From: a virus
Lineage: Duplodnaviria; Heunggongvirae; Uroviricota; Caudoviricetes
IMG/VR virus record: IMGVR_UViG_2740892019_000008
Reading direction: 5' to 3' (one strand)
Length of the DNA: 5,282 bases
In this document: in pieces, positions 1 to 5,282 of the stretch
Numbering within the stretch: the stretch's first letter is position 1
Layout of the letters: every line of letters begins with the position of its first letter
Translations under genes and position numbers: made by a program
The notes under the pieces: generated by a model
The model's input: the letters and a program-made list of their open reading frames with translations, nothing else
Databases searched by the model: none
Told to the model about the DNA's origin: nothing

Positions 1-1383
1 GCAGACCGCGCAGAAGCCGCAGCGGAAGTGACTGCAGAGCCCTGTGCGAATATAGTGCCGCCGCTGCCCGATGTGTGGATACCGTTTAATGATTCACTGG
101 ATATGATTACGGGCTTTTCGCCATCATATAAAAAAATTGTTATTGGCGACGATGAAATAACAATGCCTGGCGACAAGATTGTAAAGTTTAAACGCGCATC
201 GAAAGCAACTTACATTAATAAATCTGGTGTGCTGACAGAGGCTGCCATTGACGAGCCACGATTTGAACGTGATGGCCTGCTTATTGAGGGGCAAAGAACT
301 AACCTGCTAATCAATTCAACAAATCCGACTAAATGGAACAAGTCGTCAAATATGATCTTAAGTGCATCAGGTGTAGATGATTTCGGATTCCAGTACGCAA
401 AATTTACATTAAAACCAGAAATGGTAGGGCAAATTTCAGCGATTAACATAGTAACCGTTTCCGGCAGTAAAGGTTTTGATGTAACAGGCGGAGAAAAGTA
501 TGTAACCATATCATGCAGGGTGCAAAGTGGCACTCCAAATTTAAGATGCCGATTACGATTTGAAAACTATGATGGTTCTACCTACACATTCTTAGGTGAC
601 GCTTACTTAAATACGACAGATTTATCTATTGATAAGACGGGTGGTGCCGCTAATCGCATTACTGCAAGGGCTGTTAAAGATGAAGCAAGCAAATGGATCT
701 TTTTTGAGGCGACAATTAAGGCACTTGATACAGAAAATATGATAGGTGGAATGGTTCAGTATGCCCCGGCAAAAGGAGTGGGCACTGGCGCGGATGATTA
801 TATTTATATTGCGACCCCTCAAGTTGAAGGTGGGGCGTGCGCTTCATCGTTTATTATAACAGGCGCATCCCCTGTAACACGCGCCAGCGATATTGTAACG
901 GTCCCCATTTCTCTAAATTGGTGCAATCCCGCTATTAGTTCATTAGCAGAAGTTAATACCAATTGGGATGAATCGCCAAACAAAGAAGGTAGCGCACGTA
1001 TTCTTAATATTTCCACTACGGGAGATACAACTGAAATTGCAGATGAAAGTTATATGTATTTGGGGTATACATCTTTGGGAGCACGCGCAATCATTACAAA
1101 TGGTAAAGGCACTAAAATAGAATATAAAAGCGTTATAGAACGACCAGAGAGAAAAAGCATTATCGGCTTTAGATTCACAGAAAGTCGAGAATTGTGTGTT
1201 GTGGTTAACGGTAATATTGGTGCTAAGGTAGTTTCTCCTTATAAAAAACACAAATATACAGGAGGCTTCATTAATATTGGTGGTCAATCATCATCCGGCA
1301 ACCGTCACCTATTTGGACACGTTCGAAATCTGCGTATTTGGCACAAGGCATTGACTGATGCTCAGATGGGGGAGTCAATCTAA
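1..1383 (+). CDS. Phage tail fibre / receptor-binding protein, C-terminal part (5'-truncated at window edge), ending in a LamG/concanavalin-A-like domain
   Basis: The frame of the 28..1383 ORF is open back to position 1 with no stop. The GTG at 28 has no usable spacing to a Shine-Dalgarno and the first in-frame ATG (103) has none, so the gene most likely starts upstream of the window. The C-terminus (...GNRHLFGHVRNLRIWHKALTDAQM) resembles the conserved end of LamG-type lectin-like domains common in phage receptor-binding proteins. The stop TAA overlaps the next gene's ATG (TAATG at 1381..1385). Product call is by motif recognition and context only. Confidence 0.6.
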   Translation, partial: ADRAEAAAEVTAEPCANIVPPLPDVWIPFNDSLDMITGFSPSYKKIVIGDDEITMPGDKIVKFKRASKATYINKSGVLTEAAIDEPRFERDGLLIEGQRTNLLINSTNPTKWNKSSNMILSASGVDDFGFQYAKFTLKPEMVGQISAINIVTVSGSKGFDVTGGEKYVTISCRVQSGTPNLRCRLRFENYDGSTYTFLGDAYLNTTDLSIDKTGGAANRITARAVKDEASKWIFFEATIKALDTENMIGGMVQYAPAKGVGTGADDYIYIATPQVEGGACASSFIITGASPVTRASDIVTVPISLNWCNPAISSLAEVNTNWDESPNKEGSARILNISTTGDTTEIADESYMYLGYTSLGARAIITNGKGTKIEYKSVIERPERKSIIGFRFTESRELCVVVNGNIGAKVVSPYKKHKYTGGFINIGGQSSSGNRHLFGHVRNLRIWHKALTDAQMGESI

Positions 1384-1664
1384 TGAAAGATTTAACACTC
1401 AAATTTGCCGACAGGGCCGACTTTTCGGCCTTTATGGGAAGTATTGGCTATTATAATGACGAGTCGATGCAGGATGATATTCTGATTGATGTGATAGGTA
1501 ACGTGTACAAAGAAACCGGAGAGCTGACTGAAGATGGCGAACCGGTATGTGTTAAGGAAGATGGATATTTTGTAAACGTGCGCATCATTAAGGATACGCA
1601 AATATCGTCATTATTCGATGAATACGCGGTTGCTGTTGAGCATAAACTTCGTGGCTGGATGTGA
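1383..1664 (+). CDS. Hypothetical small acidic protein (93 aa), translationally coupled to the tail-fibre gene
   Basis: ATG at 1383 overlaps the upstream stop, with GGAG at 1371..1374 as Shine-Dalgarno. The protein is rich in D/E and has no transmembrane segment. Its position between a fibre gene and an S74-domain gene suggests a fibre assembly or adaptor role, but no recognisable motif supports that. Confidence 0.55.
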   Translation: MKDLTLKFADRADFSAFMGSIGYYNDESMQDDILIDVIGNVYKETGELTEDGEPVCVKEDGYFVNVRIIKDTQISSLFDEYAVAVEHKLRGWM

Positions 1665-1673
1665 GGTAGAGAA

Positions 1674-2378
1674 ATGGCTACATCAACAGTAATTCCGGGA
1701 GACATCACCACGCTGAAGGGAGATGTTAGTAAAGCAAAGGAAGATATTTCCTCTATTAACGGAAAAGTATCAACGCTTCAGACTGATATGGCCAGTGCAA
1801 AGCAGGATATCAGCACCAGATACACAAAAACTGAAGTTGATAATAAGCTGAAAAACAAAGTGGAAGTGAACGATCTGGAAAGTGGTCGTTATGGCGGAGA
1901 TTTTTACCCGCTGACTGGCCGTGAAGCGTTTTATTTATGGGGATTGGGCACAACTACAGCGGCGGCAAATCTTTATCTTAATCCTGACCCTGCAATTTCG
2001 TCTGTGCTGCGGTCAACATCGTCTATCCGCTATAAACATTCAGTAGAGACGATAGATTCAGAGCACGCCGATCTCATTTTCAGGATGCGCCCTGTGTGGT
2101 ACAGGTCGCAATGCGAAAATGACAGGCGTGACTGGGGATTCTATGGATTGATTGCCGAGGAAGTTGGAGAAATTGCCCCTCAGTTTGTTCACTGGCGACC
2201 AGCCAACGAAGATGATGCACCGGAAACCATTTCCAGCAATGGCCTTGTTGCCGAAGGTGTAATGTACGAACGTCTGGTTGTTCCACTGATTCACCATATC
2301 CAGAAGCTGACTGAAAGAGTTGATGAACTTGAGTCAGAATTAAAGTTGTTATCCGTTTCCCGAAGCGATATCGGATAA
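1674..2378 (+). CDS. Short tail-fibre-like protein with C-terminal peptidase S74 intramolecular-chaperone (auto-cleaving) domain
   Basis: GAGG at 1663..1666 lies 7 nt before the ATG at 1674. The N-terminal ~60 aa carry two copies of a K-x-D-[VI]-S-x-AK-x-DIS motif typical of fibre repeats. From about residue 116 the sequence fits the S74 chaperone domain (PF13884-like): S116-S-I-R-Y-K121 matches the S-[DS]-x-R-x-K Ser/Lys dyad motif (codons at 2019..2036), followed by WGFYGLIAEEVGEIAPQFV and a C-terminal coiled coil (ERVDELESELKLL). Confidence 0.75.
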   Translation: MATSTVIPGDITTLKGDVSKAKEDISSINGKVSTLQTDMASAKQDISTRYTKTEVDNKLKNKVEVNDLESGRYGGDFYPLTGREAFYLWGLGTTTAAANLYLNPDPAISSVLRSTSSIRYKHSVETIDSEHADLIFRMRPVWYRSQCENDRRDWGFYGLIAEEVGEIAPQFVHWRPANEDDAPETISSNGLVAEGVMYERLVVPLIHHIQKLTERVDELESELKLLSVSRSDIG

Positions 2379-2388
2379 AGGAGGAGTA

Positions 2389-2676
2389 ATGGATATAACA
2401 CCTTTTCTTCATGCGCTTTGTGCTGTGGCGGCGCAGGTACTGATTGGCCTTTTTACCGGAAACTGGATTTACGGGGCGATAGCCGGTTGTACGTTCTTCA
2501 TTGCGCGGGAACACACCCAAGCAGAATATCGCTGGATTGAAATGTTCGGGCATGGCAAGCGGATTAACATGCCGTGGTGGGGCGGTTTTGATACGCGCGT
2601 GTGGGATATGGCAAGTCTGATGGATTTTGCTGTGCCGGTGGTGGCGTGTTTACTTGTATTTATATTTTTTGAATAA
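2389..2676 (+). CDS. Hypothetical small membrane protein (95 aa, about three predicted transmembrane segments)
   Basis: Strong Shine-Dalgarno AAGGAGGA at 2379..2386, then ATG at 2389. Three hydrophobic stretches (FLHALCAVAAQVLIGLF, WIYGAIAGCTFFIA, FAVPVVACLLVFIFF). It is the last gene of the + strand operon and is followed immediately by a hairpin terminator. No lipobox or signal peptide is evident. Confidence 0.6.
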   Translation: MDITPFLHALCAVAAQVLIGLFTGNWIYGAIAGCTFFIAREHTQAEYRWIEMFGHGKRINMPWWGGFDTRVWDMASLMDFAVPVVACLLVFIFFE

Positions 2677-2681
2677 AATTA

Positions 2682-2708
2682 AGACCCCATCTATAACTGA
2701 TGGGGTCT
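2682..2708. terminator. Bidirectional rho-independent terminator between convergent operons
   Basis: Perfect 10-bp inverted repeat AGACCCCATC (2682..2691) and GATGGGGTCT (2699..2708) with a 7-nt loop. A T-rich tract follows on the + strand (2709..2720), and on the - strand the hairpin is followed by TTAATTTTATTC. It sits 6 nt after the 95-aa gene's stop and 17 nt after the sopB stop. Confidence 0.65.
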
Positions 2709-2724
2709 ATTCTATTTTCTGCTA

Positions 2725-3714
2725 TTAGTTATTTTTTACATCGGAAGAATTTCCAAACGCCTCCTCAAGAATAGATTCAATTTTACTCATTAGGTGCGAT
2801 GGTATTTTTCTGTTATCTAATTTTAATGTTGTGAAATTTTTCCCATATTTCGCCACAACACCGTCTCCATATTTCTTTTCCCTTTTCTCTCCATGTGAAT
2901 TGTTTTTCTCAACAATAATGAAATCATGAAGAGCCTGTATTATTCTTTGCGCATCTAAACTTTCACCTGATTTTTTCATCCTCAGCAACTGAGATGCAGC
3001 ATTTTTCATGGCTGCTTCCTGTCCCTGATATGCTTTAAAAAGAGCGTCTCCTGCTCTGGCTGATAACTCACCAGGATGGTTAAATATTGCCAATATATCT
3101 TTAGGTAAACCGGCTGTATTAATACATCGACTGATAATATTTCTATCCACGCCTTCGGCTTCAGCTAAAGATTTTACGTTACCGTCAAATTCATGGAGCC
3201 TTCGCAGGTATCTTTTCCCCCTTTCATAGGCGCTGATAGGTCTATAGTCGTTGCCTATCTGCGATAACCATTGCATTTGTTCATCATCTAAATCGCCAAT
3301 AAGAACACGATAATCGCATCCAGTTATAATGGCTGCTTTACGTCTTCGAGAACCATCAGCTACTTCAACAATACCTGACACTTTTCTTGCGAAAGCCGGA
3401 TTTTGTTGCCCAGAAGTTAGAAAAGATGGAATTAAATCAGCTAGAGAAGATTCATTTAATAAATCTTGATCGCGCTCATTACCTAGCCATACCATTGTTG
3501 CCATTTCTACTTTATCTGCGGGGATCGTCTCTAACTTAAAGTTAACATTACGTCCGCATACTGGCAAAGTTATGCTATTACCGGTTAATGAACTCAGTTG
3601 ACGTTTTAAATCACCAACCATAGGTGATACCGGCTGATGTTCAGGTGCATGATGATTATTACTCATAATGCGATTAATATCCGGAGCATTTTTTAGAAGA
3701 GAGCGTTGTTTCAT
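2725..3714 (-). CDS. sopB: Partition protein SopB (ParB-family centromere-binding protein)
   Basis: The translation closely resembles F-plasmid SopB as recalled from memory (e.g. ...GNSITLPVCGRNVNF..., WLGNERDQDLL, LIPSFLTSGQQNPAFARKVSGIVEVADGSRRRKAAI). The ParB GSRRRKAA arginine-rich box is encoded at 3331..3354. The start ATG overlaps the sopA stop (ATGA at 3711..3714), indicating translational coupling. Confidence 0.9.
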   Translation of the reverse strand: MKQRSLLKNAPDINRIMSNNHHAPEHQPVSPMVGDLKRQLSSLTGNSITLPVCGRNVNFKLETIPADKVEMATMVWLGNERDQDLLNESSLADLIPSFLTSGQQNPAFARKVSGIVEVADGSRRRKAAIITGCDYRVLIGDLDDEQMQWLSQIGNDYRPISAYERGKRYLRRLHEFDGNVKSLAEAEGVDRNIISRCINTAGLPKDILAIFNHPGELSARAGDALFKAYQGQEAAMKNAASQLLRMKKSGESLDAQRIIQALHDFIIVEKNNSHGEKREKKYGDGVVAKYGKNFTTLKLDNRKIPSHLMSKIESILEEAFGNSSDVKNN

Positions 3715-4880
3715 TCTTCGTTCTCCCAGCGAGGTTTTATTAGATCATCAAAAATTTCTCGACAAACAGGATCCCATATAGAGACGGCATTTCTCCATGC
3801 ATTAAGTGTTGAACGCTGGTTTGCCGCTTGTTCAAATACTGTTCGCATTTTTATCTGACCTTTACCTACTTCATCGGTAACGCGTACAACCTGACGTAAT
3901 ACCATTGATCCCCATGTATTTCTTATTTGCTCTTCCATCCATCGTGATTGATTTCCTGTAGTGAGACTATATTTAGTCAGAAGCAAGCGAACGGTCGGCT
4001 CAAATCCGCCTAGGTCAACGCTTTCTAGGAGATCGAGAAGCATTGTGAAAAACTGTAGAACAGAGGCGTAATCAAATAATTCTGCAGGGGTAGCAACAAC
4101 GATAACGTCAGCTGCGCAAACAACGTTAATGGTTCCTGTACCGAGGTTTGGAGCACTATCTATAACGATAACATCGTAGTTATCCCAAACTGATTCTATA
4201 GCTGCGCGTAGCATCAGGTGAGGAGGGTGAGGCAATTTACCCTGAGCATGATATTGCATGAGATCTGTTTCTATACGGTGTAAAGCTAGGCAGCTAGGAA
4301 TAATGTCCAGTCCAGGCCAGCATGTTGGTTTTATAGCATATTCAGCGTTATCGCGTTCGCCTAAGTAAAATGGCAGTAAAGTATCCTCGGCATGGATATG
4401 TAAATCAGGTACATAACCGTGATACATGGAGGCTGTTCCCTGAGGATCGTTACCTTCAACTAAAAGAACACGATGGCCTTGTAATGCTAGCCATTGTGCC
4501 TGATGTACTGCAGACGATGTTTTATAAACGCCGCCTTTGTGTGACATAACAGCAAGCACAACTGGGTTTTTATCTTGTGGCCGTTGGTTTGGGTTGCCAA
4601 AAACAGCTCGCATACTATTGATTTGATCTATGGTATAACCGGCACGACGTTCAACTCTTCCTCTCATTTCAAAGTCAGGTGCAGGTAAACGCCCGTTCTT
4701 CTCAGCATCTCTTATTGCTTGAGGAGTTACACCAATTAAATCTGCTACTTCAGTTATCCCCCATCTACGCGTGATACGCCGAGCTTCAGGACTATCATCA
4801 CCGAATTGAGCGATAGCAATTGCTTTGGTCATTTCTTGACCACGCGTAACACAATCTTGTAATAACTTTTTCAAAGACAT
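3711..4880 (-). CDS. sopA: Partition ATPase SopA (type Ia ParA with N-terminal HTH extension)
   Basis: The translation closely resembles F-plasmid SopA as recalled from memory (EMTKAIAIAQF.DDSPEAR.ITRRW, VLLVEGNDPQGTASMYHG, DLHIHAEDTLLPFYLGE, IKPTCWPGLDIIPSCLALHRIE). A deviant Walker A KGGVYKT is encoded at 4518..4538. The N-terminal ~100 aa before Walker A are typical of autoregulating type Ia ParA proteins. GGAG Shine-Dalgarno (complement of 4889..4892) lies 8 nt before the ATG at 4880. Confidence 0.92.
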   Translation of the reverse strand: MSLKKLLQDCVTRGQEMTKAIAIAQFGDDSPEARRITRRWGITEVADLIGVTPQAIRDAEKNGRLPAPDFEMRGRVERRAGYTIDQINSMRAVFGNPNQRPQDKNPVVLAVMSHKGGVYKTSSAVHQAQWLALQGHRVLLVEGNDPQGTASMYHGYVPDLHIHAEDTLLPFYLGERDNAEYAIKPTCWPGLDIIPSCLALHRIETDLMQYHAQGKLPHPPHLMLRAAIESVWDNYDVIVIDSAPNLGTGTINVVCAADVIVVATPAELFDYASVLQFFTMLLDLLESVDLGGFEPTVRLLLTKYSLTTGNQSRWMEEQIRNTWGSMVLRQVVRVTDEVGKGQIKMRTVFEQAANQRSTLNAWRNAVSIWDPVCREIFDDLIKPRWENEE

Positions 4881-4901
4881 ACTGTCATCTCCAGCTTATA
4901 A

Positions 4902-4979
4902 CTTTGCTTAATAATTATTTCTTTGCATATTTCTAGCAAATTGACATAGAAAAAGCAAAGTAAAACAAAAAACGCAAAG
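4902..4979 (-). promoter_or_regulatory. Putative sopAB promoter/operator with four SopA-type CTTTGC hexamers in dyad-symmetric arrangement
   Basis: On the + strand CTTTGC occurs at 4902..4907 and 4921..4926, and GCAAAG at 4955..4960 and 4974..4979. Each pair is spaced 19 bp, and inner and outer pairs share the same centre (about 4940.5). F SopA is known to autoregulate by binding four CTTTGC motifs in its promoter. Exact -35/-10 elements were not pinned down. Confidence 0.55.
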
Positions 4980-5167
4980 ACGAAGATTTGAGCAAAATCA
5001 TCTTTTGTTTTATCCCTTAAATGCAAAAACAAACAACGACAAGCACATAACAAATTGATAATAAATGCTTTTTTAAAAGAAAGGAAATCGTATAAAACTA
5101 GGGAAACATGATGAAAATCATCAATGAGATACGTTTCCTCTATTTATTCTCCTAATCCTCACCAACA

Positions 5168-5268
5168 AAAGAACACAATCAAAGATTGTAAAACAACAAT
5201 AATAATGCACACAAAATAAAGAACACAAATACAGAAAGCAACAACACAATAAAAACAAGATAACACAA
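5168..5268 (+). repeat. A/C-rich, strand-asymmetric tract with direct repeats (AAAGAACACAA twice, AACACAA four times)
   Basis: AAAGAACACAA at 5168..5178 and 5218..5228. The core AACACAA starts at 5172, 5222, 5243 and 5262 (spacings 50, 21, 19 bp). The + strand here has almost no G or T. No ORF is listed in any frame. The tract runs to the window edge and may continue beyond it. Confidence 0.4.
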
Positions 5269-5282
5269 GCTATAAATATTAC

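Follow-up and report, generated by a model that had tools for sequence, protein, structure and literature searches.

Oriented repeats in the sopA-side telomere arm of an N15-like phage: probable additional sites for protelomerase

The locus and its nearest relatives

The DNA analysed here, a stretch of 5,282 nucleotides from IMG/VR virus record IMGVR_UViG_2740892019_000008 and referred to as the window throughout, carries tail-fibre genes on its plus strand, followed by a terminator-like hairpin and by sopB and sopA on the minus strand. An A/C-rich tract occupies its right edge, upstream of the sop operon, as the initial annotation had stated and as the gene coordinates bear out. The principal features are:

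2725-3714, minus strand: sopB, of the sop partition operon
3711-4880, minus strand: sopA, encoding a ParA-type partition ATPase (Pfam AAA_31/CbiA); it borders the telomere arm on the inner side and lies outside the repeat array
5160-5282, plus strand: the tract, outer part of the right (sopA-side) telomere arm, homologous to the right arm of the N15 tos

The SopA of the window is 93% identical to that of N15. The hairpin at 2682-2708, GC-rich with a 10-bp stem and T runs on both sides, stands between the convergent tail-fibre cluster and sopB and looks like a bidirectional intrinsic terminator. The tail-fibre region (window 1-2650) is mosaic: positions 1269-5282 track the phage PhiR46_1 at 97% identity, and 60-2649 give piecewise matches of 85-93% to unrelated lytic and temperate coliphages, among them Tritos, 2G7b, swan01-like phages and T5-like phages of about 108 kb. 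Just upstream of sopA, four CTTTGC/GCAAAG hexamers, two per strand, are gathered within 80 bp (4902-4979) and form the inverted pairs 4901-4909/4953-4961 and 4920-4932/4968-4980. This cluster is kept in N15 and in all relatives, and it is probably the sop promoter-operator; the same CTTTGC hexamer is used by the sopAB operator of the F plasmid. A further block, 5096-5140 (…GGGAAACATGATGAAAATCATCAATGAGATACGTTTCC…), separates this probable operator from the repeats; it holds the imperfect palindrome ATGATGAAAATCATCA and is common to the lineages 97% and 82% identical to the window and partly to N15 (GAACATGCTGATTTTCAC); a related copy, TGAGCAAAATCATC, is found at 4989-5002.

The closest record is Escherichia phage PhiR46_1 (PV340565.1), which is 97% identical across window positions 4700-5282 and was deposited in the linear-plasmid form, with telL annotated at 1-22 and telR at 46269-46290. 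Position 46224 of that record equals window position 5282. Measured via PhiR46_1, the dyad centre of telO lies 55.5 bp past the end of the window, at window-equivalent 5337.5, and the telomere resolution site reads …ATCAGCACATAATTTCCCATTATACGCG|CGTATAATGG… around the dyad. Both telRL and the protelomerase gene are outside the window, and the position of the tract is read from the 97% identical relatives. The protelomerase gene of PhiR46_1 faces the tract across telRL, starting 180 bp further on; in its 633-aa product Pfam recognises the N-terminal domain of TelK together with muzzle, catalytic and stirrup domains. This protein matches the TelK structure PDB 2v6e (E 5e-295) and shares 77% of its residues with N15 TelN, the stirrup domain being nearly the same in both. 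The order sopA, spacer of about 648 bp with telRL, protelomerase gene is found in six plasmid records of E. coli and E. albertii, whose identity to the window is either 97% or about 82%. Judged from its sequence, the source of the window is an N15-like linear plasmid-prophage. It had been proposed at the outset that extension beyond 5282 might reveal a long palindrome or a protelomerase gene, and on the close relatives both came to light, the centre of the telRL palindrome 55 bp on and the gene beyond it.

Some public records of such elements have an unusual make-up. Among L016, L044 and a set of plasmid records 61-92 kb in length with two matching places, several assemblies either have the telO core precisely halfway along the contig or are about twice the unit length and hold the region in two copies, which suggests inverted-duplication artefacts produced by assembler read-through of the hairpin. 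One copy belongs to a chromosomal E. coli record, NZ_CP025707.1, at around 16 kb.

Composition and repeats of the tract

The tract (5160-5282) contains 74 A, 24 C, 9 G and 16 T. Its A+C share of 0.80 is the maximum among all 123-bp stretches of the window (mean 0.495, standard deviation 0.059), in agreement with the strand-asymmetric A/C-rich tract first noticed at this edge; the accompanying description, almost free of G and T, catches the dominance of A and C and is overstated otherwise, G+T amounting to 20%. AACACAA starts at 5172, 5222, 5243 and 5262 and is joined by one CACACAA copy, AAAGAACACAA is found at 5168 and 5218, and GCACACAA occupies 5207-5214, all at the positions given originally. 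Counted from the dyad centre of telO, the copies are arranged as follows:

5168-5180, plus strand: AAAGAACACAATC, the outermost copy, whose AACACAA starts 166 bp from the centre
5205-5215, plus strand: ATGCACACAAA, with CACACAA 130 bp from the centre; the copy closest to the inner R3 motif (GCACACAA)
5218-5230, plus strand: AAAGAACACAAAT, 116 bp from the centre, in the second unit of a 50-nt duplication
5239-5251, plus strand: GCAACAACACAAT, 95 bp from the centre, aligned with N15 ACAGAACACAACAT
5258-5270, plus strand: AGATAACACAAGC, 76 bp from the centre; relatives read GAGAACACAAG at the same place

The start-to-start spacings of 36, 14, 21 and 19 bp contradict the roughly helical spacing that had been claimed, and the two AAAGAACACAA copies stand 50 bp apart as members of a 50-nt tandem duplication (5153-5202/5203-5252, 72% identical). 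Tandem Repeats Finder reported only a weak 14-bp array of 2.4 copies in the tract, at 5196-5229. Over the whole window AACACAA was observed six times against 0.97 expected, a count of at least six being reached in none of 200 shuffles. When dinucleotide shuffling was confined to the tract, at least four AACACAA appeared in 27 of 5000 cases, and some 7-mer was present at least four times in 673 of 5000 (13%). By the sequence of the window alone, the repeats are thus only modestly significant, and the case is carried by the comparative data.

The few positions at which the tract differs from its 97% relatives (5207 and 5260, also 5187 and 5238) sit in or beside repeat copies. G5207 is specific to the window, the 97% relatives having T; it makes GCACACAA, which is nearer to the inner motif of N15. 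T5260 converts AGAACAC to ATAACAC, the phiKO2-type variant.

Several identities considered at the beginning could be discarded. An inverted repeat of the TGGGACC..GGTCCCA type found no match in the window with up to three mismatches allowed, and the missing GGGACC..GGTCCC palindrome rules out a sopC-like SopB centromere. Replication iterons were rejected, as the neighbours of the tract are sopA and the hairpin, with no replication gene or origin next to it; on the linear map of PhiR46_1 the primase/replication gene takes up 4314-8309, some 4 kb away from the other telomere, which does not fit an iteron reading. Folding of the tract as RNA gave z-scores of -1.30 (plus strand) and -0.36 (minus strand), neither strand beating its shuffles, and a search of Rfam at permissive thresholds returned no match below E 0.18, all hits being chance-level snoRNA or miRNA families far under their gathering scores; a structured non-coding RNA was dropped on these grounds. 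Among the interpretations listed by the initial annotation, the centromere, the iterons and the structured RNA therefore fall away, and that of accessory repeats near an N15-type telomere resolution site is retained, with binding by protelomerase as its conditional part.

The tos of N15 and the arms of other telomere phages

In a MAFFT alignment of nine sopA-telN spacers including that of N15, the tract stands opposite the N15 sequence between sopA and telRL. Window and N15 have in common positions 5172-5185 (AACACAATCAAAGA) and 5219-5226 (AAGAACAC). The N15 segment in question belongs to the tos (telomerase occupancy site); primers published by the Ravin laboratory for a 0.4-kb tos fragment stop just outside the outermost repeat pair, at AACACAATCAAAGAACA and TGTTCTTTGATTGTGTT on its two sides. 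According to the sections of a 2025 paper that describe the substrate (PMC12624138), the natural target of TelN spans about 310 bp, and the 56-bp telRL consists of telO with the L3/R3 motifs. The same sections, drawing on Deneke et al. (2000, 2002), treat L1/L2 and R1/R2 of N15 as degenerate copies of L3/R3. Taking the homology to the N15 tos together with its published description, the tract would be the counterpart of the R1/R2 part of tos, an identity that, taken separately from any function, appears practically certain. The copies of the tract match the inner R3 motif CAGCACA(C/T)AAT at 8-9 of 11 positions and in the same orientation; between the inner motif of the window's own lineage, CACATAA, and the AACACAA of the flank there are two mismatches.

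Conservation is unevenly distributed along the alignment. The AACACAA at 5172 and the AAAGA that follows it are invariant in nine of nine aligned elements, N15 included, and the outermost copy is located 166/167 bp from the centre in all lineages examined except phiKO2 and MStein. The AAAGAACACAATC copy is probably the ortholog of the outermost right-arm repeat of N15, R1, the naming being provisional. AAGAACA of the AAAGAACACAAAT copy is likewise kept in all aligned elements including N15. The GCAACAACACAAT copy is kept in the 97% group and lost in the 82% group; the copies at 95 and 76 bp are both absent from the latter, which amounts to turnover between lineages. Overall, motif columns are moderately better conserved than spacers, with values of 0.74 vs 0.67 against the 82% group and 0.71 vs 0.50 against N15.

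The strand asymmetry of the tract is half of a mirror pattern. The A+C share is 0.65-0.90 in right arms and 0.30-0.45 in left arms, and outside the window N15 and the relatives carry mirrored TTGTGTT copies upstream of the protelomerase gene. With both arms oriented toward the dyad and the inner 28 bp left out, the most enriched 7-mer in the arms of PhiR46_1 is AACACAA, with four copies on the right and three, as reverse complement, on the left (0.032 expected, P 7e-15); the same 7-mer ranks first in N15 with 2+2 copies (0.029 expected, P 3e-8). Seven of the nine AACACAA copies in the 46.3-kb genome of PhiR46_1 are less than 180 bp from a telomere, all seven facing the hairpin, and four of the eight copies of N15 lie inside tos. 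The AGATAACACAAGC copy has its mirror 75/76 bp from the centre in the protelomerase-side arm, and the lineage of the window shares with N15 and phiKO2 a set of left-arm copies placed 157, 100 and 75/76 bp out; the arms of phiKO2 cannot be aligned with the others, yet its left-arm copy positions are kept. In relatives, additional right-arm copies are found 45 and 22 bp from the centre, the one at 22 bp being the inner motif itself.

A wider survey started from a telO-core scan of viral contigs, in which 48 loci were reduced to 39 non-redundant arms; four GC-rich arms of two unrelated contigs were set aside, and 35 were used. When the outer part of each of these 35 arms was searched for that arm's own inner 11-mer, with a minimum of 8 matching positions out of 11, 85 forward and 8 reverse matches were obtained, compared with 24.1 expected from composition-preserving shuffles, the forward/reverse bias being partly a consequence of the A/C composition itself. 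An arm holds on average 2.43 sites for its own motif vs 1.19 for foreign motifs taken from lineages differing at four or more positions. Along these lines, divergent inner motifs (CGATACA, CGTCAC, CGACACA, AGATAC; GATACA and CGTAAC types) are accompanied by matching variants in their own flanks. Such co-variation would be expected of an inner motif and flank copies recognised by one and the same protein. No clean period of about 10.5 bp emerged from the analysis of helical phasing over the 35 arms, the peaks being dominated by homologous positions.

The same collection of loci yielded three observations on the telomere sites as such. In the 82% lineage (L006-L009), telRL (alignment columns 465-520) is asymmetric in its outer element, with ACGAAACATAAT on the sopA side and the reverse complement of CAGCACATAAT on the protelomerase side, so that the telRR junction formed on replication would carry another outer recognition motif than telLL. 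In a subtelomeric arm of the divergent telomere phage L046, some 200-215 bp out from the centre of telO, there is a SopB-type palindrome that is perfect, TGTGGGACCATGGTCCCA, and in this lineage a putative centromere-like site thus adjoins the telomere. The palindromic telO (L001 8270-8291, L003 3793-3814) presents a perfect TATAAT facing outward on each strand, which could act as a -10 element, only as long as the junction is uncut.

A probable role of the repeats and the alternatives

The explanation favoured here, to which a probability of roughly 0.7 is assigned as a whole, takes the tract as the outer half of the right tos arm, with R1/R2-type repeats that bind further protelomerase. Its second element, the binding, is likely in view of the oriented, mirrored, nearly telomere-exclusive and co-varying arrays, which form the pattern expected of real binding sites. 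Four other accounts have to be weighed against it. The tract could be a passive, A-rich spacer, easily bent or melted and bound by no protein in a sequence-specific manner, whose repeats arose incidentally from its low complexity and a recent duplication of 50 bp. Two copies are indeed accounted for by the duplication, and the frequency with which shuffled tracts repeat some 7-mer, the missing helical phasing and the turnover of copies between lineages all agree with such a view. The same 7-mer is nevertheless mirrored on the other arm and nearly absent elsewhere in the genome, copy positions are kept in N15 and phiKO2 despite unalignable flanks, and the flank motifs co-vary with the inner motif well above composition-preserving shuffles. 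A purely compositional spacer cannot account for exclusivity, mirroring, positional conservation and co-variation together, and this account is regarded as unlikely. Quite unlikely, too, is a reading in which the repeats are occupied by some other protein, be it SopB or SopA, host IHF or Fis, or another phage regulator. The sequence names no binding protein directly, the tract lies upstream of sopA, and A-rich DNA often attracts nucleoid proteins; against this, the window is devoid of the SopB-type palindrome, the CTTTGC repeats resembling a SopA operator cluster separately at 4902-4979, and the motif recurs upstream of the protelomerase gene at the other telomere, resembles the inner protelomerase site and co-varies with it.

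It has also been considered that the tract mainly serves as a transcribed region, either as the U/G-rich 5' leader of a telomere-proximal sop promoter or as a small RNA. Neither a promoter nor a terminator was predicted in the tract; when it and the whole spacers of one relative and of N15 were scanned for sigma-70 promoters and for terminators, hits were no more frequent than in shuffled sequences, the sole 'terminator' called in the spacers being the telRL palindrome itself. Weak minus-strand promoter-like hexamers beside telRL in N15 and one relative speak in favour of transcription. Dorokhov, Lane and Ravin are said to have described in 2003 a second sop promoter in N15, repressed by protelomerase and located far upstream of sopA, which would lend this account some colour and would equally fit a regulatory role for the right arm. 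As the folding and Rfam results given above point the other way and the mirrored copies on the other arm are left unexplained, mere transcription is very improbable as the main role of the tract; it is compatible with protelomerase binding rather than a replacement for it. A coding function is hardly credible. An open frame of 45 codons is present on the minus strand (5121-5258), but stop codons interrupt it in N15 and frame shifts do so among the 82% relatives, it has no Pfam match, and a product as rich in Cys, Leu and Phe as this one is to be expected from any T/G-rich strand. The non-coding appearance first attributed to the tract is thereby upheld.

Returning to protelomerase, the AACACAA repeats would be degenerate, same-orientation copies of R3/L3, the outer recognition element of telRL, and further enzyme molecules may bind to them. 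In the TelK-DNA structure, going by PMC12624138 and the Pfam domain names, it is the stirrup domain that contacts the core site at its outer element. With the stirrup of TelK on the equivalent inner element in the DNA complex, the stirrup/CTD1 is the candidate domain for reading the flank copies; where the 2025 paper (PMC12624138) addresses binding of CTD1 to L1/L2 and R1/R2, it is called merely 'conceivable'. Several enzyme molecules could in this way occupy about 170 bp beside the hairpin. After replication, both sides of the palindromic telRR junction, at which the arm is exactly mirrored, would be occupied. An assembly of this kind may raise the local enzyme concentration for telomere resolution and possibly allow faster location of the site; it could help to cap the end or cover it with protein; and it could repress the promoters of the neighbouring sop and protelomerase genes, the two outward-facing operons. 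It can be rationalized that, since the right arm faces its own mirror in telRR, each arm is free to evolve its own copy number and spacing with the array still symmetric for a dimeric enzyme, which would explain the differences between right and left arms.

In this context one should recall that in N15 the 56-bp telRL is by itself sufficient for resolution, and that TelN deprived of its C-terminal domains still protected hairpins from SbcCD, near wild-type transformation then requiring induction. The flanking repeats would accordingly be non-essential for these two known functions of TelN. A more far-reaching and at present tentative proposal, rather doubtful in its full extent, is that oriented subtelomeric arrays of half-site-like repeats, co-evolving with the protelomerase motif, are general in telO-type phages and nucleate an assembly of several protelomerase molecules, comparable to a telomere cap, by which the terminal ~170 bp are folded or looped; transcription of the partition and protelomerase genes might then be coupled to whether the end exists as a circular junction, a replicated junction or a hairpin, and the denser array of the window would be a stronger version of the same device.

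A comparison with known systems places the array closest to N15, whose R1/R2 (L1/L2) occupy the same place between sopA and telRL and are directly alignable; in both cases R3-type degenerate copies face the dyad and are mirrored on the protelomerase-side arm, and the 77% identity between TelN and the PhiR46_1 enzyme, the cognate protelomerase of the window's lineage, fits this relation. The array of the window is denser, with five copies 76-166 bp from the centre vs two or three in N15, partly because of the 50-nt tandem duplication; A+C per 40 bp rises to 0.90 in the window's lineage vs 0.75 in N15, and the inner motif of N15 is CACACAA rather than CACATAA. The flanks of phiKO2 (TelK) likewise bear oriented arrays in both arms, with the left-arm positions given above (157, 100 and 76 bp), but the flank motif is CATAACAC in place of AGAACAC and the arms are otherwise unalignable with the window. 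PY54 and vB_YenS_P840 also possess, beyond the minimal target of their protelomerase, one more symmetric element of debated role in vivo, though as a single inverted repeat pair of 10-15 bp rather than an array; in vB_YenS_P840, this inverted repeat is dispensable for processing in vivo. An analogy may be drawn with the arm-type sites of lambda attP, where extra recognition motifs flank the core cleavage site of a tyrosine-recombinase-like enzyme. Such additional copies around a core are common to both systems, and the difference is that the N15 core alone suffices, in vitro and in vivo.

Repeats flanking telRL of N15 have been known since 2000, and to the specialist the present finding will not come as a surprise; the window adds a lineage with a denser array. 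Telomere elements of N15 serve in linear cloning vectors and in linearised chromosomes, and for such constructs it may be of consequence whether the 56-bp core or the complete arms are used.
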